Source: Escherichia phage UFJF_EcSW4
Length of the DNA: 40,299 bases
Reading direction: 5' to 3' (one strand)
Sequence record: PP856269
Positions within the stretch are counted from its first letter, which is position 1; each line of letters opens with the position of its first letter. Below, in pieces: positions 1 through 40,299 of the stretch. Below the pieces are notes generated by a model. It was not told where the DNA came from. It was given only the letters and a program-made list of their open reading frames with translations, and made no database searches. A program made the translations under genes and the position numbers.

Positions 1-286
1 CAAGAACCTCAAGTCTCCCCATAGGCCCTCTTTCAGTCTCGACCAAAGGCCCTACCCCAGTATATCATAAGGTTGGACCGATGGTCAAGACTTCAGGTCA
101 ACGATAGGTGGTGACTATGGCTTCGGGAAGGACGATAGGTGGTGACTATAGGCCCTCTTTCAGTCTCGACCAAAGGCCCTACCCCAGTATATCATAAGGT
201 TGGACCGATGGTCAAGACTTCAGGTCAACGATAGGTGGTGACTATGGCTTCGGGAAGGACGATAGGTGGTGACTATTGGTCTGTCT
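1..286. repeat. Direct terminal repeat, left copy (286 bp, identical to 40014-40299)
   Basis: First 286 nt (caagaacctcaagtctcc...gactattggtctgtct) recur exactly at the window end; T7-like phages carry direct terminal repeats. The true DTR may extend beyond the window edge. Confidence 0.9.
21..276. repeat. Two tandem 128-bp units (21-148, 149-276) inside the terminal repeat, each holding two copies of an 18-bp motif ACGATAGGTGGTGACTAT
   Basis: Read directly: ataggccctctttcagtctcgaccaaaggccctacccc...ggtggtgacta repeats head to tail with period 128; the 18-mer sits at 101-118, 132-149, 229-246 and 260-277. Confidence 0.9.
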
Positions 287-317
287 TTTGAGTCTCTATC
301 TGTATCAGACCTTGAGT

Positions 318-392
318 CACTACCTACAGTCTAACTACCTACAGTCTAACTACCTACAGTCATCGACCATCGGTAATGCAGCTACCTACAGT
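318..392. repeat. Short tandem repeats CTAACTACCTACAGT (two full copies, one partial, plus a fourth TACCTACAGT at 383-392) just inside the left DTR
   Basis: Read directly at 319-360 and 381-392; a related CCTAC(A/G)GT array lies just inside the right DTR. Confidence 0.85.
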
Positions 393-518
393 CAGAGACA
401 TACAGTTAATAGACACAAAGGCTATAGACTTAAGGTCTAAGACATGTTAGTCAAAGACTATATCCTCTTACACCATGGGGCCGACGATGGCTTAATCAAT
501 ATTATTTCAAATTACATA

Positions 519-548
519 TTGACTACAGGTCCAGACTATGGCTTAATA
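519..548 (+). promoter_or_regulatory. Candidate host sigma70-type early promoter (TTGACT, 18 nt, TTAATA)
   Basis: -35-like TTGACT at 519-524 and a weak -10-like hexamer at 543-548; position matches the T7 early promoter cluster. Weak -10. Confidence 0.3.
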
Positions 549-829
549 GCTTCCGTCAACACGACACGGCAACAACCGGATAGTGAAGACGCCGGTGTCA
601 TCCCGGTTAAGTAGACAGCCTGATAAGTCATAAGAACAACAGGCAGATGACAATAAGGTAGTAAGGTCGCTGAGGGCTTCCACTTCAGCAGGTCGGAAAG
701 GTCCTAAAACCTAACGAGAGTCTGACCAGCTCGCCAAGTCTGCCACTGAGGTGGATAACCAGAGGAGGCAACGTGTCGCCCACTGAGGGGCTACAGCTCA
801 CAGTTTAGGTTAACAGGCTAAACAAATGC

Positions 830-859
830 TTGACAAGATGTAACGATAAGATGTAATAT
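830..859 (+). promoter_or_regulatory. Candidate host sigma70-type early promoter (TTGACA, 17-18 nt, TAATAT)
   Basis: Consensus -35 TTGACA at 830-835 and TGTAATAT at 852-859; resembles the T7 A2/A3 pattern (TTGACA...GTAAGAT) and sits about 180 bp upstream of the first early ORF. Confidence 0.5.
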
Positions 860-1037
860 TTACCACATCGAAACAACGGTGATGACCAACACTGAAATGG
901 TCTACCTGAAGTCCTCTGACTGAAGGGAATGCTCTTTAACAATCTGGATAAACTCTTAATGTGCGCCGATAGCGACTAACTACAGGGCCTTTGAGTCTAC
1001 ATCTGAAGGCCCTGACTGATAGCCACTAACTTAAAGG

Positions 1038-1292
1038 ATGGACACTATGAAACACTTAAGCACAATCACTAATCGCAATGAAGTATTCGTGAACACTAAA
1101 GGTTATGCGTGGATTCAGCTTAAAGAGATGAGAGGAGCGCGTCACCGTGTGGTAGTGCGCAAGGTATCAAGCAAGCAGTTCAGCAACTACAGAGTCGATA
1201 CTATGCGTATAGACAACGAGACTTACCTGATAGACTCGCAGATAACCGTGCGTCCTACAGCGGGCATCTCAGCTCCTTATTTCGCTAACTGA
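1038..1292 (+). CDS. Hypothetical early protein, 84 aa (alternative start at the ATG at 1047)
   Basis: First ORF after the early promoter region, preceded by aaagga; no recognisable similarity. Confidence 0.5.
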   Translation: MDTMKHLSTITNRNEVFVNTKGYAWIQLKEMRGARHRVVVRKVSSKQFSNYRVDTMRIDNETYLIDSQITVRPTAGISAPYFAN

Positions 1293-1375
1293 GAGTGATT
1301 AACTACAGGTCGTTAGACTGATAGCGGCCTGACTGATAGTCACTAACACATAATTAACTTTGAGAGGATATAACT

Positions 1376-1879
1376 ATGGAACGTAATGCTAACGCATACT
1401 ATGAGCTGCTGGCTGCAACCGTTGAGGCATTTATCGAGCGTATTCAGTACGACCACCTGACTCAAGATGATGACTACAGCGATGCGCTGCATGAGGTAGT
1501 AGACGGTCAGGTTCCACACTATTACCACGAGATTTTTACGGTGATGGCTGCTGATGGTATAGACCACGAGTTCGAAGACTCTGGGCTGATGCCTGAAACC
1601 AAGGACGTAACGCGTATACTACAAGCTCGCATCTATGAGGCGCTTTATAACGATGTGTCTAATAGCTTGGATGTAGTCTGGTTTGAGGATGAAGAGGCAG
1701 ACGAAGAGGATGAATATTGGGTAGTTGACGCTAAAACAGGCGCAATAATTGTGCAAGCTGTAGCTCTTGAGGTCGCTACTGCATGTGCCAAGGTCAACTA
1801 TGCAATAGGTCGCCACCTGAAGGTGGAAGACATCAATGATAACGTAGTGTTCGACCCTGCGGCTGAGGACTGCGAGTGA
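1376..1879 (+). CDS. 0.3: Ocr-like DNA-mimic anti-restriction protein (gp0.3 homolog) with a roughly 50-aa C-terminal extension
   Basis: 167-aa acidic protein; the segment [42 protein letters not shown] matches the T7 Ocr core ([42 protein letters not shown], from memory). T7 Ocr is 117 aa. Confidence 0.85.
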
Positions 1880-2028
1880 TGGTAACTTATGGTCTCTGCC
1901 AGCACCACGTCGCCAACGCCCGGCTTATGGTCAAGACCGGGCGGTTAACCCATGATGATACTATGCGTCTCCTGAAGGTGGTCTACAAGCGCCGCAAGCG
2001 CATACACGACAGTTTGCACGCTGAGTGA
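1879..2028 (+). CDS. Possible small basic protein, 49 aa, coupled to the Ocr stop (TGATG overlap)
   Basis: ATG at 1879 overlaps the Ocr TGA; [49 protein letters not shown]; below the ORF-track size cutoff. Confidence 0.3.
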   Translation: MVTYGLCQHHVANARLMVKTGRLTHDDTMRLLKVVYKRRKRIHDSLHAE

Positions 2029-2095
2029 TAAACGAGAGGTCATCGACTGATAGGTGGCCTCAAAGATTACCACTTACATTGATAGGAGAATTACT

Positions 2096-2263
2096 ATGAA
2101 ATTTACAATCATCGCACTTTACGTAACCATTATTCTATCTTGGCTTACTGCGGTGCTCACTGATGGTAACGCATTACGACTGGGCTGGCTGGCAGTGGAC
2201 ATTATATTCTCTCCGGTAGGTGTCGTGCGCGGTATCTTGATATGGATTGGACTGGCAGGATAA
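2096..2263 (+). CDS. Small hydrophobic (membrane) protein, about 55 aa; track ORF extends to a GTG at 2054
   Basis: ATG at 2096 is preceded by aggag at spacing 8; MKFTIIALYVTIILSWLTAVL... is predominantly hydrophobic, consistent with a membrane helix. Confidence 0.5.
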   Translation: MKFTIIALYVTIILSWLTAVLTDGNALRLGWLAVDIIFSPVGVVRGILIWIGLAG

Positions 2264-2266
2264 ACT

Positions 2267-2464
2267 ATGAGTCTTGCACTATTGATAGCAATAGGCTATG
2301 GACTTATCGCCTACGTGCTGGTGAGATACATCAACAAAGCGCGTAAAGTCTACAAATTCAACTATGTACGTCTGGGCCGCTGGACTGTACGTCAACCTAA
2401 CGGACGATTCATGCGCAACTTAGCGAACGTCTGGGATATAGCAACTATTGGGAGCAAACTGTAA
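2267..2464 (+). CDS. Hypothetical small protein, 65 aa, hydrophobic N-terminus
   Basis: ORF packed tightly after the previous gene; N-terminal LALLIAIGYGLIAYVLV stretch. Confidence 0.5.
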   Translation: MSLALLIAIGYGLIAYVLVRYINKARKVYKFNYVRLGRWTVRQPNGRFMRNLANVWDIATIGSKL

Positions 2465-2724
2465 TGAAAACCGTATACATTAACAAACCATCTAGCCATA
2501 GCCGTGTAGAGCAAATAGAGCGTGACATGCTCTTACATCGCCGCATGAGGGCTGAGGGCCATAAGTACGAACTGATGAGTCTGGCGTTTGGTGGACGACC
2601 GATCACTGACGATGGTAAACTTTTAGTCTCAGGCTGGAAGGCGATAGACCAACGGTCAACCATCAAGCACACGACTCACGGTGACTTCAGCCATCTCCAC
2701 GCTAACCCACTGATATGCAAGTGA
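2464..2724 (+). CDS. Hypothetical early protein, 86 aa
   Basis: Start overlaps the upstream stop (TAATG); occupies the position where T7 has genes 0.6/0.7 but is far too short to be the gp0.7 kinase. Confidence 0.5.
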   Translation: MKTVYINKPSSHSRVEQIERDMLLHRRMRAEGHKYELMSLAFGGRPITDDGKLLVSGWKAIDQRSTIKHTTHGDFSHLHANPLICK

Positions 2725-2729
2725 TTATG

Positions 2730-2752
2730 ACTTAACTATCACTATAGGACTC
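2730..2752 (+). promoter_or_regulatory. Phage RNAP promoter (CTTAACTATCACTATAGGAC), immediately upstream of the RNAP gene
   Basis: Matches the 11-copy consensus (T/A)AACTATCACTATAGG; predicted +1 G at 2747. Confidence 0.7.
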
Positions 2753-2821
2753 AAGGTCTAAGACTCCAAGTGAAAGACCAAAGAGACTTTAAGTGAAAGA
2801 CTAATAACAAGGACTTTAAGT

Positions 2822-5503
2822 ATGAGCGTCATCTCTATTGATAAACACGACTTCTCTGATGTGTCTAACGCCATTGAGCCGTTTAACCTGCTGGCTGACC
2901 ACTACGGGCAAGACCTTGCAGTCAAACAGCTTCAGCTTGAGCATGAGGCATACACTGAAGGCGAGCGACGTTTCATCAAAAACCTTGAGCGACAGACTGA
3001 GCGCGGGGAACTGGCAGACAATCAGGTCGCCAAGCCTTTGATGCAGACTCTGGTTCCTAAGATTGCGCAAGCCGTCAAGGAGTGGCACGAAGGTCCAGAC
3101 GGGAAGCTGTCAACCTCACGTCCGAGCGTAGCGTTCACCATGTTAAGCACTGAAGAGAAGGCCGTTAAAGACCGCTCTCTACGCATCTCCTGTGAGTCTG
3201 CTGCGGTCATCATACTGAAGGTCATACTCTCCAAGCTGGTCAAGCCTGAAGGTATACCGATTACACCGATGGCCTCCGCGATAGGTCGCACACTTGAGGA
3301 TGAAATCCGATTCGGTCGCATTCGTGACAAGGAGAAGGAGCACTTCAAGAAGGCGATAGCTGAGAACTTGAACAAGCGAGCTGGGGCATCCTACAAGAAA
3401 GCCTACATGCAAGCGGTCGAGGCATCCATGCTGGAGCAAGGCCAACTGGAAGATGCGTGGGGGAATTGGAGTCCTACAGAGGCTGTCCACGTTGGCATCA
3501 AGATGCTTGAGATTATCATCCAGTCGACGCAACTGGTCGAGCTTAAGCGCTACGGTGCTGGCAATGCAGCGGCTGACGTTGAGATGGTCCACCTGTCAGA
3601 CTTCTGGGTCAAGAAGATGGCACAACGCGGCTTTAGCCTTGCGGGTATCGCCCCAGTCTACCAACCTTGCGTCGTTCCACCTAAGCCGTGGACTGGTGTC
3701 GTAGGCGGTGGGTACTGGGCCAAAGGTCGCAGACCTCTACCACTGATTCGCTTAGGGTCTAAGTCTGCGGTAGCACGTTACGAAGATGTGTATATGCCTG
3801 AAGTATATGACGCTGTTAACATCATCCAGAATACACCTTGGAAAGTAAACAAGAAGGTTCTGGACGTGGTGAACATGGTCGAGAAGTTGAACAACACGCC
3901 TATTGATGATATCCCTCAGATGGAGCCACTGAAGCCTGAAGACTATGCAGGTGAGACTGAAGAGGAACTCAAGGCATGGAAGAAGGCTGCTGCTGGTATC
4001 TACCGCCGAGAGAAGGCCCGGCAGTCACGTAGATTGTCACTGAGCTTTATCGTTAACCAAGCGAACAAGTTCTCTCAGTTCAAGGCCATCTGGTTCCCGT
4101 ACAACATGGACTGGCGCGGTCGCGTCTACGCTGTGCCGATGTTCAACCCTCAGGGTAACGACATGCAAAAGGGTCTCCTGACTCTGGCAGTCGGTAAGCC
4201 TATTGGTGCTGATGGTTTCAAATGGCTGAAGGTCCACGGTGCAAACTGTGCGGGTGTCGATAAAGTCACCTTCGAGGAGCGCATCAAGTGGGTGGAAGAC
4301 AACCACGACAACATCATGGCTGCTGCTAAGGCACCGATGGATAGCATTGAGTGGTGGGGCAAGTTAGACTCTCCTTTCTGCTTCCTTGCGTTCTGCTTCG
4401 AGTATGCTGGCGTGATGCACCACGGATTGTCTTACTCCTGCTCGCTGCCGATAGCATTCGATGGGTCCTGCTCTGGGATTCAGCACTTTAGCGCGATGCT
4501 TCGTGATCACATCGGTGGACATGCAGTAAACCTGACGCCTTCCGGTAAGGTCCAAGACATCTACCGCATCGTGTCTAACCGCATTGAGGAAGAGCTTAAA
4601 GTCCTGCTGGTTAACGGCACGGACAACGAGATGGTAACTCACGAGGACAAGAAAACTGGTGAGATTACCGAGCGTCTCAAGCTGGGGACACGAGAGCTGG
4701 CCCGTCAGTGGCTGACCTACGGTATGTCACGAAAGGTCACTAAGCGTTCGGTCATGACTCTGGCCTACGGGTCGAAAGAGTACGGCTTCGCAGACCAAGT
4801 TTACGAGGACATCGTGATGCCAGCGATTGACTCAGGGTCTGGCGCTATGTTCACTGAACCAAGCCAAGCATCTCGCTTCATGGCTAAGATGATTTGGGAA
4901 GCTGTGAGTGTGACCGTAGTTGCTGCGGTTGACGCGATGAAATGGCTTCAGGGTGCTGCCAAGCTGCTGGCGGCTGAAGTGAAGGACAAGAAGACGGGTG
5001 AAATCCTGAAGCCTTGCCTTCCGGTACATTGGGTCACACCTGATGGGTTCCCGGTCTGGCAGGAATACCGCAAGAAGGATACCACTCGTCTGAACCTGAT
5101 GTTCTTAGGGTCCTTCAACCTTCAACCTACCGTCAACAAAGGTACTAAGAAAGAGCTGGACAAGCACAAGCAGGAGTCAGGCATTAGCCCGAACTTCGTC
5201 CACTCACAAGATGGTAGCCACCTCCGCAAGACTGTAGTCCATACTCACCGCAAGTATGGCGTGATGTCGTTCGCAGTGATTCACGATAGCTTCGGGACCA
5301 TCCCGGCTGACGCTGAGTATCTGTTCCGTGGGGTCCGTGAGACTATGGTCGAGACATACCGCGACAACGATGTGCTGCTTGACTTCTACGAGCAGTTTGA
5401 ATACCAGCTTCACGAGAGCCAGCGCGATAAGTTGCCAGAGCTTCCGAAGAAAGGTAAACTGAATATCGAAGACATCTTGTCTTCAGACTTTGCATTCGCT
5501 TAA
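2822..5503 (+). CDS. 1: Single-subunit DNA-directed RNA polymerase (T7 RNAP family)
   Basis: 893 aa; blocks such as PFCFLAFCFEYAGV, SCSGIQHFSAMLRD, RSVMTLAYGSKE..., HDSFGTIPADA and the C-terminal FAFA match T7/T3 RNAP recalled from memory. Confidence 0.97.
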   Translation: MSVISIDKHDFSDVSNAIEPFNLLADHYGQDLAVKQLQLEHEAYTEGERRFIKNLERQTERGELADNQVAKPLMQTLVPKIAQAVKEWHEGPDGKLSTSRPSVAFTMLSTEEKAVKDRSLRISCESAAVIILKVILSKLVKPEGIPITPMASAIGRTLEDEIRFGRIRDKEKEHFKKAIAENLNKRAGASYKKAYMQAVEASMLEQGQLEDAWGNWSPTEAVHVGIKMLEIIIQSTQLVELKRYGAGNAAADVEMVHLSDFWVKKMAQRGFSLAGIAPVYQPCVVPPKPWTGVVGGGYWAKGRRPLPLIRLGSKSAVARYEDVYMPEVYDAVNIIQNTPWKVNKKVLDVVNMVEKLNNTPIDDIPQMEPLKPEDYAGETEEELKAWKKAAAGIYRREKARQSRRLSLSFIVNQANKFSQFKAIWFPYNMDWRGRVYAVPMFNPQGNDMQKGLLTLAVGKPIGADGFKWLKVHGANCAGVDKVTFEERIKWVEDNHDNIMAAAKAPMDSIEWWGKLDSPFCFLAFCFEYAGVMHHGLSYSCSLPIAFDGSCSGIQHFSAMLRDHIGGHAVNLTPSGKVQDIYRIVSNRIEEELKVLLVNGTDNEMVTHEDKKTGEITERLKLGTRELARQWLTYGMSRKVTKRSVMTLAYGSKEYGFADQVYEDIVMPAIDSGSGAMFTEPSQASRFMAKMIWEAVSVTVVAAVDAMKWLQGAAKLLAAEVKDKKTGEILKPCLPVHWVTPDGFPVWQEYRKKDTTRLNLMFLGSFNLQPTVNKGTKKELDKHKQESGISPNFVHSQDGSHLRKTVVHTHRKYGVMSFAVIHDSFGTIPADAEYLFRGVRETMVETYRDNDVLLDFYEQFEYQLHESQRDKLPELPKKGKLNIEDILSSDFAFA

Positions 5504-5517
5504 CAGGAGAGAGAGCT

Positions 5518-5733
5518 ATGAAATTTGCACACAAGCATACTGGCGTTAATGGTGGGACTCAAATCGTGACCGTAACAGAACACAACGGCAAGGGTCTTGT
5601 GAAGACCACGGTCATCCCTACCGAGATGTCCAAGCAGCTTAACATCCCGTTCAAGACTCTTGTAGATCTGGTCGAGTCCAGCCACGAGAAGTACCTGAAG
5701 GACGCAGTGTCCAAGCTGGAGCAGGCCAAATGA
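5518..5733 (+). CDS. Hypothetical protein, 71 aa, directly downstream of the RNAP gene
   Basis: Strong SD (caggagagagagct ATG); no T7 counterpart recognised at this position. Confidence 0.5.
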   Translation: MKFAHKHTGVNGGTQIVTVTEHNGKGLVKTTVIPTEMSKQLNIPFKTLVDLVESSHEKYLKDAVSKLEQAK

Positions 5734-5807
5734 CAGACCTACAGTTACTGGCCTTGTGGCTAGGAGCACTCGCAGTATTCACTTTAATCCAACGCAGAAG
5801 AGGTTAA

Positions 5808-5830
5808 CCTAAACTATCACTATAGGATTA
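5808..5830 (+). promoter_or_regulatory. Phage RNAP promoter (phi1.1-position)
   Basis: CCTAAACTATCACTATAGGATTA; +1 at 5825. Confidence 0.75.
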
Positions 5831-5870
5831 GACTCAAGGTCATGACTCAACGTCGTGGCCTTCATGATTA
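5828..5870 (+). promoter_or_regulatory. Conserved RNA element, candidate RNase III processing site (R1.1-position)
   Basis: TTAGACTCAAGGTCAT-N-TGGCCTTCATGATTA; AAGGUCA (5836-5842) can pair with UGGCCUU (5856-5862) including one G-U; two further copies at 13355 and 37006. Confidence 0.4.
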
Positions 5871-5900
5871 ACCCTAATAAACTACTGGAGATTTAACCAT

Positions 5901-6080
5901 ATGTATCAGAACACTATCAACTTCGAGCGAATCCGTGAACGTCAGCAGACTGAAGGTTACATTCCGAAGGGCCGCAAGCTGAACAAGACCAAGCGCGGCG
6001 GTGGTGTCAAGGGTGCTTTCCGTAACGCTGAAGGCAAAGACTCTCTGGTCAACCAAGAGAAATACTTCGTAGGAGCATAA
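5901..6080 (+). CDS. 1.1: gp1.1-like small basic protein, 59 aa
   Basis: MYQNTINFERIRERQQTEGYIPKGRKLNKTKRGGG...; the GRKLNKTKR motif matches T7 gp1.1 from memory; below the ORF-track cutoff. The minus-strand track ORF 5874-6083 is its shadow. Confidence 0.6.
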   Translation: MYQNTINFERIRERQQTEGYIPKGRKLNKTKRGGGVKGAFRNAEGKDSLVNQEKYFVGA

Positions 6081-6084
6081 CACT

Positions 6085-6348
6085 ATGGGCCGACTTTATA
6101 GTGGCAACCTCAACGCTTTCAGAGCAGCGTGTAACAGGCTTTATCAGTTAGACTTCGCTGTCATATCTCAGGAGTTTCAAGACTATACGTCACGCCAAGA
6201 GTGTATGAAACTCAGGGTCGAGGACCTAGCTGGTAACATCTTCGCGCTTGAGACCTTCGCACATTACGATGAAGACGTGCTGTATAACACTGCAACAGAC
6301 TACATCAACGGTCTCGCTGACCAACTCGACACATGGAGCAAAGCATAA
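6085..6348 (+). CDS. 1.2: gp1.2-like host dGTPase inhibitor
   Basis: MGRLYSGNLNAFRAACNRLYQLDFAV... matches T7 gp1.2 (MGRLYSGNLAAFKAATNKLFQLDLAV...). Confidence 0.8.
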   Translation: MGRLYSGNLNAFRAACNRLYQLDFAVISQEFQDYTSRQECMKLRVEDLAGNIFALETFAHYDEDVLYNTATDYINGLADQLDTWSKA

Positions 6349-7454
6349 TGACTACGACTATCAAAACCAACCCGCACCGCGCTGTAGATTACTCTGAGTC
6401 TGGCGTTAAGAAAGCACTGGAGGCCGCTGGGTCTCTCGAAGCTGAAGTGAAGTACGATGGCGTCCGGTTGAATCTTCCGGTCTTCCCTACTGGTGAGACT
6501 CAATGGTTGAGCCGTGAGTCTAAACCTCTCCCAGCCCTTAGCTGGTTGAACACTTCCGGTCAGGACATAGGAGCTACCAAAGCGAGCGACTGGCGGTGGT
6601 TCCTGAAGCAAGCTGGCTATGAAGGGACTGGCCTGATGATTGATGGCGAGGTCATGGTGAAAGGGGTTGACTTCAGCACGTCTTCGGGCCTCATTCGCAC
6701 GAAGTATGTCAAGTCTAGAAACTACGACTTCCACGATGGCGATTGGGACCTCAAGTCCAAGACTACTCAGTTCCGGCTGGACCGAGACCATATCAAGGTG
6801 GTCGTCTATGGTATCATAGACCTTAACGTCATCCTTGACCAGAAAGCCGAAGGTCCTATCCATAGCGTCACCCGACTGAAGGCCGAAGCTATCGTCCCTC
6901 TCCTCCAGAAATACCTCCCTGAAATCGACTGGGTTCTGTCTGAGTCACACACGGTCTATGACCTTGAGTCGCTCAACTCCCTGTACGAAGAGAAGCGTCT
7001 GGAAGGACACGAGGGTCTGGTAGTCAAGGACCCGCTGGGTAAATACAAGCGTGGCAAGAAGTCAGGTATGTGGAAAATGAAGCCTGCAGATACCATTGAT
7101 GGTATTGTGGTCGGACTGAATTGGGGGACTGAAGGTCTCGCCAACGAAGGTAAGGTGATTGGGTTCGACGTACTGCTTGAGAACGGTATGGTAGTTGCTG
7201 CTAACAATATCTCTCAGGCTCTGATGGACGAGTTCACCGAAGCGGTTGAAGTTGAACGTGCCTATATTTGGAATGACTGCATGACCGATATTGAGCGGGA
7301 AGAATGTGGTGAGGAATGTCTTGAGGACGTGAACCCATACAAAGGGCATCAATGCGAAGTCTCCTACATGGAGATGACACCAGATGGTTCCTTACGGCAC
7401 CCTAGCTTCAAGTGCTGGCGTGGGACGGAAGATAACCCGACCATTAAGAGCTAA
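6348..7454 (+). CDS. 1.3: ATP-dependent DNA ligase
   Basis: Adenylation motif EVKYDGVR (active-site Lys), MIDGEVMVKGVDF, EGHEGLVVKDP, PDGSLRHPSF match T7 ligase; start taken at the ATG overlapping the gp1.2 stop (TAATG). The track ORF begins 15 nt upstream at 6333. Confidence 0.9.
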   Translation: MTTTIKTNPHRAVDYSESGVKKALEAAGSLEAEVKYDGVRLNLPVFPTGETQWLSRESKPLPALSWLNTSGQDIGATKASDWRWFLKQAGYEGTGLMIDGEVMVKGVDFSTSSGLIRTKYVKSRNYDFHDGDWDLKSKTTQFRLDRDHIKVVVYGIIDLNVILDQKAEGPIHSVTRLKAEAIVPLLQKYLPEIDWVLSESHTVYDLESLNSLYEEKRLEGHEGLVVKDPLGKYKRGKKSGMWKMKPADTIDGIVVGLNWGTEGLANEGKVIGFDVLLENGMVVAANNISQALMDEFTEAVEVERAYIWNDCMTDIEREECGEECLEDVNPYKGHQCEVSYMEMTPDGSLRHPSFKCWRGTEDNPTIKS

Positions 7455-7463
7455 CTAAACGTC

Positions 7464-7500
7464 AACCCAGTGGTCTTAGGACTGCTGGGTTTCTTTGCTT
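7464..7500 (+). terminator. Intrinsic terminator after the ligase gene (TE-position)
   Basis: AACCCAGTGGTC ttag GACTGCTGGGTT: 12-bp stem with two G-U pairs and a tetraloop, followed by TTCTTTGCTT. Confidence 0.55.
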
Positions 7501-8392: not shown

Positions 8393-8479
8393 ACCAAGTG
8401 AGTGGTGCCGGGAGATGTACGAGAAGACTCTCAACACAGACTACATTACGTTATACAACCAATGGAAGGAGCGTGGTCT

Positions 8480-8650
8480 ATGACTGACGTAGAAAAGAAG
8501 TACATCGTGGAGCTTGAGGGACGCGTTCAGTCCTTCGAGGTTCCGTTGTACGCAAAGTCTCTTGAAGAGGCTACCCTGAAGTCCCAAGAGTATGAGGACG
8601 CTGGTTTTGTGGTCGGACGGATTCGTCCTGAGACTAAACTATCACTGTAG
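8480..8650 (+). CDS. 2: gp2-like inhibitor of host RNA polymerase
   Basis: 56 aa from the internal ATG with SD ggaagga; [14 protein letters not shown]...[10 protein letters not shown] matches T7 gp2 (SFEVPIYAETLDEA...AGFEVTRVRP). The track ORF starts at 8402. Confidence 0.8.
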
Positions 8651-8695: not shown

Positions 8696-9391
8696 ATGGC
8701 TAAAGAGCAACTGAAGACTTTCACCACTCCGGTAGCTGGTATCGTTGAGCCTTACGCATGGCTGAACAAAGCAGACACCAAGTTTAACGAGCGTGGTGAG
8801 CATAAGGTTAACCTGACATTCGACCTGAGCAACCCGAAGGTCCGTAAGATGATTGATGTCTTACAGAAGATTCACGACGATGCGTATGCGAAAGCACTCG
8901 CAGACCACGAGAAGAACCCACCTCAGGTTCAGCGTGGCAAGAAGCCTATTGAACCACGAGAAGGCGACATGCCGTGGATTGAGAATGGTGACGGTACTGT
9001 TACCATGAAGTTTAAATGCTTCGCGTCTTACCTGAAGGATGGTAAGTCTGAGCCTATCATATTACGGTTCTACGACACCGATGCTAAGTTAATCCGTGAC
9101 GTCCCGAATATTGGCGCTGGCTCAAAGCTGAAGGTCAAGTTTAAAGTCCTGCCGTTTAAGTGGAACGCTGCGACTGGTGCAAGCGTTAAGCTCCAACTTG
9201 AGTCCTGCCTTCTGGTAGAACTGAAGGAGTGGAAAGGTGATGGTGCTGGTGGCGATGGTGGCTGGGGTGACGATGAAGACCTCGGTACTGGCTACAAAGC
9301 GTCAACCGATGGTGACTTCGGGTCTGATGACTTCGGTGACGATGGTTCCGAAGGTGGTGACGATGATTCCGAAGGCGATTACAACTTCTAA
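8696..9391 (+). CDS. 2.5: Single-stranded DNA-binding protein
   Basis: 231 aa; GDMPWIENGDGTVTMKFKC, GAGSKLKVKFKVLPFKWNAATGASVKLQLES and the acidic C-terminal tail ending in F match T7 gp2.5. Confidence 0.95.
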   Translation: MAKEQLKTFTTPVAGIVEPYAWLNKADTKFNERGEHKVNLTFDLSNPKVRKMIDVLQKIHDDAYAKALADHEKNPPQVQRGKKPIEPREGDMPWIENGDGTVTMKFKCFASYLKDGKSEPIILRFYDTDAKLIRDVPNIGAGSKLKVKFKVLPFKWNAATGASVKLQLESCLLVELKEWKGDGAGGDGGWGDDEDLGTGYKASTDGDFGSDDFGDDGSEGGDDDSEGDYNF

Positions 9392-9840
9392 TGGCTACAG
9401 TGAAAAGCCTTAAGCAGCGACTCATGGTTTCGGGTGACTGCTGGCTTTTTACAGGCTGCGTTAACAACAAGGGCTACGGTCAGATTAGGCATAATGGGAA
9501 AACCATGCTTGCACATCGCGTAGCCTACGAGCTGATTACAGGTGAGGAACCTAACGGTGTTCTACTACACACTTGTGACACTCCGCTATGTTGTAACCCT
9601 GAGCATATGACTGTAGGAACCCAACGGGACAACCTTCAGGACATGCGTAACAAGGGGCGCGGTGTAAACCCTCCTCATGTTCCGGGAGAGAAGTGTGGTA
9701 TGTCTAAACTTACCAACACTAAAGTCAAGGAAATTAGGTCTTCCAGCCTTACCCAGCGACAGCTCGCCACAATCTACGGAGTGTCTCAGCCGACAATAGG
9801 TAAGATACTAAGGAGAGAAACATGGCGACACGTAATATAA
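9391..9840 (+). CDS. HNH homing-endonuclease-like protein with C-terminal helix-turn-helix (gene 2.8 position)
   Basis: VNNKGYGQIRHNGKTMLAHRVAYE...HTCDTPLCCNPEHMTVGTQRDN is an HNH_3-type motif; C-terminal LTQRQLATIYGVSQPTIGKILRRETWRHV is HTH-like; start overlaps the gp2.5 stop (TAATG). Confidence 0.8.
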   Translation: MATVKSLKQRLMVSGDCWLFTGCVNNKGYGQIRHNGKTMLAHRVAYELITGEEPNGVLLHTCDTPLCCNPEHMTVGTQRDNLQDMRNKGRGVNPPHVPGEKCGMSKLTNTKVKEIRSSSLTQRQLATIYGVSQPTIGKILRRETWRHVI

Positions 9841-10970: not shown

Positions 10971-11186
10971 ATGATTAAACTTATCGAATTTCTTGGTCGT
11001 CTGGTGGTGCGTGGCTATCGTCGTGCTGCGGTTCTGGAACGAAAGGTAGAAAAGAAGACTGCTGACGGTGCGGCTGATGCTGCTGCTCTGGCTGACAAGC
11101 TGACCATCGCGTCACTGGAAGCTGGCATGAAGGCACGTCAGGCTGACACCAAGGCTGACCAGTTGTCTCAGTTCTTCAAAGACTAA
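10971..11186 (+). CDS. Hypothetical protein, 71 aa
   Basis: ORF with SD (aagggagaatagctca ATG); its stop TAA lies inside the following promoter. Confidence 0.5.
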   Translation: MIKLIEFLGRLVVRGYRRAAVLERKVEKKTADGAADAAALADKLTIASLEAGMKARQADTKADQLSQFFKD

Positions 11187-11204
11187 ACTATCACCTTAGG
11201 GATG
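11182..11204 (+). promoter_or_regulatory. Phage RNAP promoter variant (CACCTTAGG; gene 4 promoter position)
   Basis: ACTAAACTATCACCTTAGGGATG; two mismatches in the -4/-3 region, so probably weaker. Confidence 0.45.
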
Positions 11205-11254
11205 GGACCATGAGTCCTGTCCCTTTGTTCGCATTTGTGACTAAGGAGTGACCG

Positions 11255-11434
11255 ATGGTTACAGTTATTCTAGTTCTAACGCTTATCAGTGGTAGTGGGC
11301 AAACTATCAGCCAAGTACCTATAACAGCACCAACATTACAGGACGCATTCACAATATGTGACCAGTCCGGCTCAAAGTGGGCCGACAAGTTTGGCGATGT
11401 CTCAAACGTTGCAGCAGGGTATGAGTGTATTTAA
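11255..11434 (+). CDS. Possible small protein, 59 aa, hydrophobic N-terminus
   Basis: MVTVILVLTLISGSG...; preceded by TAAGGAGTGACCG ATG, almost the same 13-nt SD context that precedes the primase gene at 11445. Confidence 0.35.
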   Translation: MVTVILVLTLISGSGQTISQVPITAPTLQDAFTICDQSGSKWADKFGDVSNVAAGYECI

Positions 11435-18414: not shown

Positions 18415-18437
18415 ACTAAACTATCACTATAGGGACT
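18415..18437 (+). promoter_or_regulatory. Phage RNAP promoter (phi6.5-position)
   Basis: CACTAAACTATCACTATAGGGACTT; +1 at 18432. Confidence 0.75.
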
Positions 18438-40013: not shown

Positions 40014-40299
40014 CAAGAACCTCAAGTCTCCCCATAGGCCCTCTTTCAGTCTCGACCAAAGGCCCTACCCCAGTATATCATAAGGTTGGACCGATGGTCA
40101 AGACTTCAGGTCAACGATAGGTGGTGACTATGGCTTCGGGAAGGACGATAGGTGGTGACTATAGGCCCTCTTTCAGTCTCGACCAAAGGCCCTACCCCAG
40201 TATATCATAAGGTTGGACCGATGGTCAAGACTTCAGGTCAACGATAGGTGGTGACTATGGCTTCGGGAAGGACGATAGGTGGTGACTATTGGTCTGTCT
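40014..40299. repeat. Direct terminal repeat, right copy (identical to 1-286)
   Basis: Exact identity with the window start, including the internal 128-bp tandem duplication. Confidence 0.9.

Follow-up and report, generated by a model that had tools for sequence, protein, structure and literature searches.

A conserved phage promoter directly upstream of the RNA polymerase gene of the K1F-like coliphage UFJF_EcSW4 points to a probable self-transcribed polymerase gene

The RNA polymerase (RNAP) gene of Escherichia phage UFJF_EcSW4, gene 1, is directly preceded by a sequence that is likely to be a functional promoter for the phage's own single-subunit RNAP. The site belongs to the phage promoter set of the genome, is conserved in relatives from two genera, and varies together with the promoter specificity of the polymerase. 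Judged from the sequence, gene 1 is best read as a natural self-transcribed polymerase gene that would be bootstrapped by host promoters. The window, that is the whole stretch of 40,299 bp that was analysed, is a complete linear K1F-like coliphage genome (Kayfunavirus, Studiervirinae). Its region 2300-3300 has 97-98% identity to K1F and relatives, and the encoded RNAP is 97-99% identical to K1F-group RNAPs. The features discussed are collected in Table 1.

Table 1. Features of the UFJF_EcSW4 genome that bear on the gene 1 promoter and its leader.
Feature	Position	Strand	Basis or remark
Host (sigma-70) early promoter, A1 equivalent	519..555	+	TTGACTACAGGTCCAGACTATGGCTTAATAGCTTCCG matches EcoDS1 'host RNAP promoter' 469-505
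Second host-type early promoter, TTGACA-18-TAATAT	830..859	+	Consensus scan, 10/12 matches
gp0.38-like ORF, 86 aa, hypothetical	2464..2724	+	phrog_7066
Phage RNAP promoter, -17 to +6 (ACTTAACTATCACTATAGGACTC), +1 = G2747	2730..2752	+	17-mer search, weight matrix
75-nt 5' leader of the predicted phage-RNAP-made gene 1 transcript	2747..2821	+	A-rich, unstructured
Repeat unit copy 1 (GACTCAAGGTCTAAGACT)	2748..2765	+	First 10 nt = 5' arm of the genome's RNase III-type hairpins
Repeat unit copy 2 (GACTCCAAGTGAAAGACC)	2762..2779	+	
Repeat unit copy 3 (GACTTTAAGTGAAAGACT)	2785..2802	+	
Shine-Dalgarno AAGGA, 8 nt before ATG	2809..2813	+	Sequence inspection
Repeat unit copy 4, truncated (GACTTTAAGTATG)	2812..2824	+	Makes up the spacer before gene 1 and its ATG
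Gene 1, single-subunit RNA polymerase, 893 aa	2822..5503	+	PF00940 1e-106, PF14700
Next phage promoter, φ1.1-like, +1 = 5825, then R1.1-type hairpin ~5836-5862	5808..5830	+	
Terminator-like hairpin after ligase gene, at T7 TE position	7464..7491	+	
gp2-like inhibitor of host RNA polymerase	8402..8650	+	PF16857 6e-19
gp3.5-like amidase/lysozyme, candidate brake on phage RNAP	10488..10946	+	PF01510 2e-15; role from T7 biology

The promoter reads ACTTAACTATCACTATA followed by GGACTC, and its G(+1) at 2747 gives the gene 1 transcript a 75-nt leader before the RNAP ATG at 2822. A search of the genome with the 17-mer TAACTATCACTATAGGA (up to 3 mismatches) returned 10 matches, all ten of them on the + strand, where 0.05 would be expected by chance. 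The consensus of the ten copies is cTWAACTATCACTATAGGR. The 2747 site fits it perfectly, including the CACTATAG core and the G at +1, and scores 34.3 bits on a weight matrix derived from the nine remaining promoters; these score 27.5-37.8 bits when each is left out in turn. The best non-member site in a matrix scan of the genome reaches 26.1 bits (11199, a CACCTTAGGG variant) and the next one 16.4. With its GGA start, the 2747 site groups with the early and middle promoters at 5825, 7554 and 8650, while those at 18432, 22249, 27032 and 39427 start with GGG. It lies in the intergenic gap, on the same strand as gene 1 and 6 nt after the stop codon of the gp0.38-like ORF, for which a Pfam search returned no match. 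Neither an inverted repeat nor a terminator-like site was found between the promoter and gene 1. The promoter is also the leftmost phage promoter of the genome: to its left the matrix scan gave no site above 8 bits, and hence no φOL. The preliminary description had placed a consensus phage promoter with its +1 at 2747, 75 nt before the RNAP start codon, which the sequence, the ten copies and the matrix score confirm.

Two other sites resemble parts of this promoter set. The 11199 site is an 11th, degenerate promoter-like sequence (ctaaactatcaccttaGGGATGGG at 11177-11206, +1 at about 11199), scoring 26 bits where the ten good sites score 34-43; a small ORF at 11255, which precedes the primase-helicase gene, follows about 50 nt downstream. 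At 422-445, TATAGACTTAAGGTCTAAGAC closely copies the opening ~20 nt of the gene 1 leader. Its location, immediately before the A1-like host promoter, is that of φOL in T7 and Yepe2. The sequence upstream of it does not resemble a promoter, and the near-copy may be a decayed φOL. φOL annotation is absent from the records of the relatives EcoDS1 and CR8.

For the first round of gene 1 transcription, the genome has two host-type promoters at its left end. From these promoters (519 and 830) to gene 1 no terminator-like site was found on the + strand, so that the first gene 1 mRNA can come from host RNA polymerase. In T7, gene 1 had been described as served by host promoters only. This is a simplification, since T7 has φOL (nt 405) upstream of its whole early region and in the same orientation; φOL-type promoters are also found in Yepe2 and K11-like phages, whereas UFJF_EcSW4 has none. 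T7 also has a minor E. coli promoter, C, at 3113 upstream of gene 1. Together with the R1 site, promoter C occupies the genomic position that the gene 1 promoter has in UFJF_EcSW4, and the stable hairpin that T7 has there is absent here. Another layout of the early region is seen in a T3-like locus (L038, 2370-3000), where gene 1 comes directly after φOL, three host promoters and an RNase III hairpin, with none of the early genes 0.3-0.7 in between.

The gene 1 promoter is conserved well beyond the immediate relatives of UFJF_EcSW4. In a comparison set of 80 IMG/VR loci found with the RNAP as query, a phage promoter lies 74-102 nt upstream of gene 1 in every locus whose RNAP is 78-99% identical and whose upstream region is present. 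It is likewise present in six further GenBank Kayfunaviruses (from Salmonella, Klebsiella, Enterobacter and E. coli), and in all Kayfunavirus and Caroctavirus relatives examined. These loci amount to 24 distinct sequence variants, and 223 records of the phage collection cover at least 80% of 2690-3000; an IMG/VR search with gp0.38 did not increase the diversity. In contrast, 0 of the 58 T7-, T3- and K11-like loci have a phage promoter within 400 nt of gene 1, and these phages have an R1 RNase III hairpin before gene 1 in its place. Within the K1F type, where much of the conservation is shared ancestry at 95-99% identity, only 1 of 17 promoter positions and none of the 6 positions from +1 to +6 are variable, compared with 4 of 8 just upstream.

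The strongest sequence-based argument that the promoter is used comes from its co-variation with RNAP specificity, which rests on three specificity classes. The specificity region of the promoters (-12 to -8) is of the CTATC, CCCTC or GGTAC type, and the type tracks the residues of the RNAP specificity loop at T7 positions 748 and 756: N/N in UFJF_EcSW4, D/R (the T3 pair) in phages of the CCCTC type, and, in CR8, K at 748. Phages of the CCCTC type (L018, L040, L102 and L104) have TTAAACCCTCACTATAGGA at all of their promoters, the gene 1 site included, and CR8, which is of the GGTAC type, has AAGGAAGGTACACTATAGG at all of its promoters, again including the gene 1 site. The gene 1 promoter has thus changed with the other promoters of the genome in three lineages, which argues for its use by the phage's own RNAP. 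One variant of another kind was observed in the SH4-type clade (L012-L014, L020, L021, L103, L105 and L106), whose promoter is 81 nt upstream of gene 1. There the gene 1 promoter alone reads CACTAAAGG, with an A at -2, and the other promoters detected read CACTATAGG or CACTGTAGG. The A at -2 could reflect tuning, giving a tuned-down self-promoter, or partial decay.

Taken together, membership in the promoter set, orientation, the lack of an intervening terminator, conservation and co-variation make self-transcription of gene 1 the natural reading. The suggestion in the preliminary description that the polymerase could transcribe its own gene is thereby upheld at the level of sequence, and the promoter is real, conserved and very probably functional. 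The parts needed for bootstrapping and braking, namely host promoters and homologues of gp2 and gp3.5, are all present in the genome. We infer initiation at 2747 in vivo, a feedback loop and a brake on it, in the following order. Host RNA polymerase would start at 519 and 830 and read through the early genes into gene 1, yielding the first polymerase molecules. These would initiate at G2747 and produce a gene 1 transcript with an A-rich, unstructured 75-nt leader and a good predicted ribosome-binding site (AAGGA, 8 nt, ATG), at which point polymerase synthesis would become self-amplifying. Once gp2 shuts off the host enzyme, RNAP synthesis would be independent of host RNA polymerase. In T7, the gp3.5 lysozyme restrains the phage polymerase, especially at class II promoters. 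By analogy, the feedback loop would presumably be limited by the gp3.5 lysozyme of UFJF_EcSW4, and the GGA start at 2747 resembles the weaker, lysozyme-sensitive class II promoters.

The arrangement is not new, as the promoter is annotated in two related phages. The Kayfunavirus EcoDS1 (EU734172) has a 'phi' promoter at 2244-2266 before gene 1 with the identical 23-mer, and shares with UFJF_EcSW4 the leader, the distance of 75 nt to gene 1 and gene 0.38 as the upstream neighbour; its annotation also includes three host promoters. The Caroctavirus CR8 (HG818824) has a 'predicted promoter' of its own type at 3356-3378 before gene 1, in the same arrangement. Neither phage differs substantively from UFJF_EcSW4 in this respect. 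Both records annotate the promoter only, and a discussion of self-transcription or of the leader was not found in them. For another Kayfunavirus, Sparklingdew, a CTWAACTATCACTATAGG repeat has been described; it lies at the 3' end of the gene whose number directly precedes that of the RNAP gene (2026; PMC13298934).

An experimentally supported analogue is known from LUZ100, in which a phage-specific promoter, φ1, lies directly upstream of the RNAP gene with a transcription start site supported by ONT-cappable-seq, and for which a positive-feedback loop on the RNAP gene was proposed (Putzeys et al. 2023; PMC10134795). Like UFJF_EcSW4, LUZ100 has a phage promoter right before its RNAP gene and, farther upstream, host promoters that allow bootstrapping. 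However, it is a distant T7-like Pseudomonas phage that shows temperate features, and a MarR-like repressor has been proposed as the gate on its loop, whereas UFJF_EcSW4 belongs to the strictly lytic Studiervirinae. The same feedback, with a polymerase gene under its own promoter, is a feature of the T7 'autogene' that Dubendorff and Studier reportedly engineered in 1991 by placing gene 1 under a T7 promoter. Derivative systems have been built on it (PMC6395690, PMC1500874). The autogene is artificial and serves expression, whereas the arrangement in UFJF_EcSW4 is natural and forms part of an infection programme that includes gp2 and gp3.5. The K1F RNAP and its cognate promoter act as a specific pair in vivo in engineered systems (PMC12218169).

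Given the annotations in EcoDS1 and CR8 and the experimentally supported analogue, the self-transcribed polymerase gene should come as at most a mild surprise to the specialist. It matters for the textbook circuit of T7, where the phage polymerase is first made through host RNA polymerase and subsequently takes over from it: a natural lineage whose polymerase also drives its own gene would show that this circuit is evolutionarily flexible. There is also a practical side, as the K1F RNAP is a tool for orthogonal expression and mutagenesis, and phages of the K1F type find use in therapy and are engineered for it. The residual interest lies in the leader, which is A-rich, built of repeats and homologous to a T7 leader associated with a replication origin.

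The leader is 43% A, and its peak 60-nt window, at 48% A, is the highest in the genome. Its AT content of 67% corresponds to the 98.7th percentile of 60-nt windows, other stretches of the genome reaching 73%. Interleaved direct repeats had been reported in it, and they are found exactly where they were described: AAGTGAAAGAC occurs at 2768 and 2791, and GACTTTAAG at 2785 and 2812. They are non-random, an exact repeat of at least 11 nt being present in only 0.36% of dinucleotide shuffles of the leader (P≈0.004), and GAC is also overrepresented, with 6 occurrences against about 2 expected (P=0.0005). The two repeats are parts of one degenerate unit, GACTYYAAGKNNAAGAC(Y), of which the leader contains four copies starting at 2748, 2762, 2785 and 2812. 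The best pair of repeats extends over 21 nt (2761-2781 and 2784-2804) with 86% identity. The copies do not form a strict tandem repeat; they are degenerate and spaced by 14, 23 and 27 nt, and Tandem Repeats Finder reports nothing. The different leader types, including that of CR8, have in common GGACTCAAGGTC, several AAGAC(T/C) and ACTTTAAG-like motifs, and AAGGACTTTAAGTATG, while the exact duplication of the 11-mer is lost in CCCTC-type and SH4-type leaders. Two GTG mini-frames were also noticed in the leader, at 2770-2796 (8 codons) and 2793-2803 (3 codons), the stop of the first overlapping the start of the second (GTGA). They do not have a convincing Shine-Dalgarno sequence and are probably coincidental.

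The repeats do not appear to build a structure. It had been proposed that they could form regulatory RNA structure, yet the leader folds no better than its shuffles (minimum free energy of -12 to -13.5 kcal/mol, z = -0.28 and +0.78, not significant), RNAalifold on 11 leader variants gives -5.6 kcal/mol with zero compensatory pairs, and a search of Rfam with the leader returned no match. An RNase III site equivalent to R1 was likewise rejected, because the hairpin in question is weak (-12 kcal/mol, z = -0.28, compared with -21.5 kcal/mol for the fold of T7 R1) and only the 5'-arm motif GACTCAAGGTC is present. This 5' arm is shared between the start of the leader and the RNase III-type hairpins of the genome at 13350 and 37003, which have z scores of -4.3 and -4.0. 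The epsilon enhancer of T7 gene 10 was also considered, and its 9-mer TTAACTTTA is absent from the leader. The leader does contain GACTTTAAG, which has ACTTTA in common with epsilon and of which the second copy lies between the Shine-Dalgarno sequence and the ATG. Most likely, the repeats would serve as an open, purine-rich region for ribosome loading and not as RNA structure, and they most likely reflect the ancestry of a promoter-leader-RBS cassette that is shared with the φ1.1B/gene 1.1 leader of T7.

This ancestry is indicated by an alignment in which the UFJF_EcSW4 leader (2747-2824) is collinear, end to end, with the leader that runs from φ1.1B to gene 1.1 in T7 (L085; T7 5923-6009). The local alignment score is 44, where 2000 shuffles gave 16.9±3.2 and at most 33, and the match is the best one in T7 1-7000. 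The gene 1 leader of UFJF_EcSW4 and the gene 1.1 leader of T7 each have two copies of ACTTTAAG and end in GGACTTTAAGTATG, and both begin with GGA and are without significant structure. In T7 the cassette is downstream of gene 1 and serves gene 1.1, whereas in UFJF_EcSW4 it is upstream of gene 1; the interval from gene 1 to gene 1.1 contains two promoters in T7 and one in UFJF_EcSW4. From the collinear leaders and the promoter counts, the cassette looks like a φ1.1B-type promoter-leader-RBS module that has been transposed across gene 1. The collinearity also suggests that one such cassette serves different genes in the two lineages. An earlier description of it was not found in the literature searched.

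The promoter could also serve mainly for replication priming or DNA entry, with transcription of gene 1 as a by-product. The φ1.1A/φ1.1B element is the primary replication origin of T7 (PMC8373140), which makes an origin role of the UFJF_EcSW4 cassette possible by analogy. The promoter and its A-rich leader would then be primarily a replication origin, the Kayfunavirus counterpart of φ1.1A/φ1.1B with its AT-rich region, moved upstream of gene 1, at which transcripts from 2747 prime DNA synthesis and gene 1 expression is secondary. The leader collinearity, the ACTTTAAG copies and GGACTTTAAGTATG ending of both leaders, the single promoter between genes 1 and 1.1 and the high AT content are all consistent with such a role, which could coexist with self-transcription of gene 1. 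However, homology of the leader sequence does not show origin activity, which is known for the T7 φ1.1 element only, and other stretches of the genome are more AT-rich. The bottom strand of the leader has a primase-type pentamer, TGGTC, which was dismissed as a chance occurrence (an estimated ~0.4 sites are expected per 150 nt). We consider a primary origin function unlikely. Somewhat less likely again is a dual element, in which the cassette would be the transposed Kayfunavirus/Caroctavirus homologue of φ1.1B together with its AT-rich origin element, and would both fire replication and close the feedback loop. If this were true, the GACTYYAAG iterations would be functional parts, such as sites at which RNA passes into DNA or at which ribosomes load.

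The repeats themselves invite a reading as operators, in which near-palindromes of the GACTTTAAGT type (ACTT-T-AAGT) would be protein sites that repress transcription or translation of gene 1 and so tame the feedback. Several observations would fit: the repeats are non-random, every leader type, that of CR8 included, retains copies of the motif although the sequences have turned over, and the leader is more constrained than the flank just upstream. In the LUZ100 study, sites for regulators were proposed around the corresponding promoter (PMC10134795). No candidate regulator was found next to gene 1, though: the PHROG matches of the neighbouring early ORFs are all of unknown function, a Pfam search detected no DNA- or RNA-binding domain in them, and no MarR-type gene was seen among the early ORFs scanned. 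The exact 11-mer repeat, moreover, is not kept in the CCCTC-type and SH4-type leaders, and the homologous T7 φ1.1B leader is not known to act as an operator. Repression at these sites seems improbable. It is very improbable that the promoter benefits the phage mainly through faster entry of the genome. T7 is known to couple DNA entry to transcription, and from the leftmost phage promoter of a genome that has no φOL, the RNAP would pull in DNA from 7% of the genome length and not from a promoter after gene 1. Yet gene 1 is already inside the cell once RNAP protein exists, which limits the gain to at most ~3 kb, and the conserved leader is left unexplained. That the 2747 site is a non-functional, vestigial copy left by recombination is hardly credible. 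The apparent transposition of the cassette relative to T7 and the decayed copy of the leader start at 422-445 speak for such a copy, whereas the match to the consensus is perfect, the site is present in all relatives examined from two genera, and it has been re-specified three times in step with the specificity of the RNAP.

A few features of the genome are noted in passing. The direct terminal repeat is 286 bp long (1-286 and 40014-40299), compared with only 178 bp in EcoDS1, and inside it 127 bp are tandemly duplicated (21-167 and 148-296) with 96% identity. Downstream of the terminal repeat, at 320-365, the triple tandem repeat ctacctacagtctaa resembles the (acctacagtcaac)3 repeat annotated in CR8. 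Between the genes for the single-stranded DNA-binding protein SSB (gp2.5) and endonuclease I (gp3), an ORF at 9391-9840 encodes an HNH endonuclease (PF13392, with a weak HTH_psq match) and is probably a homing endonuclease insertion.
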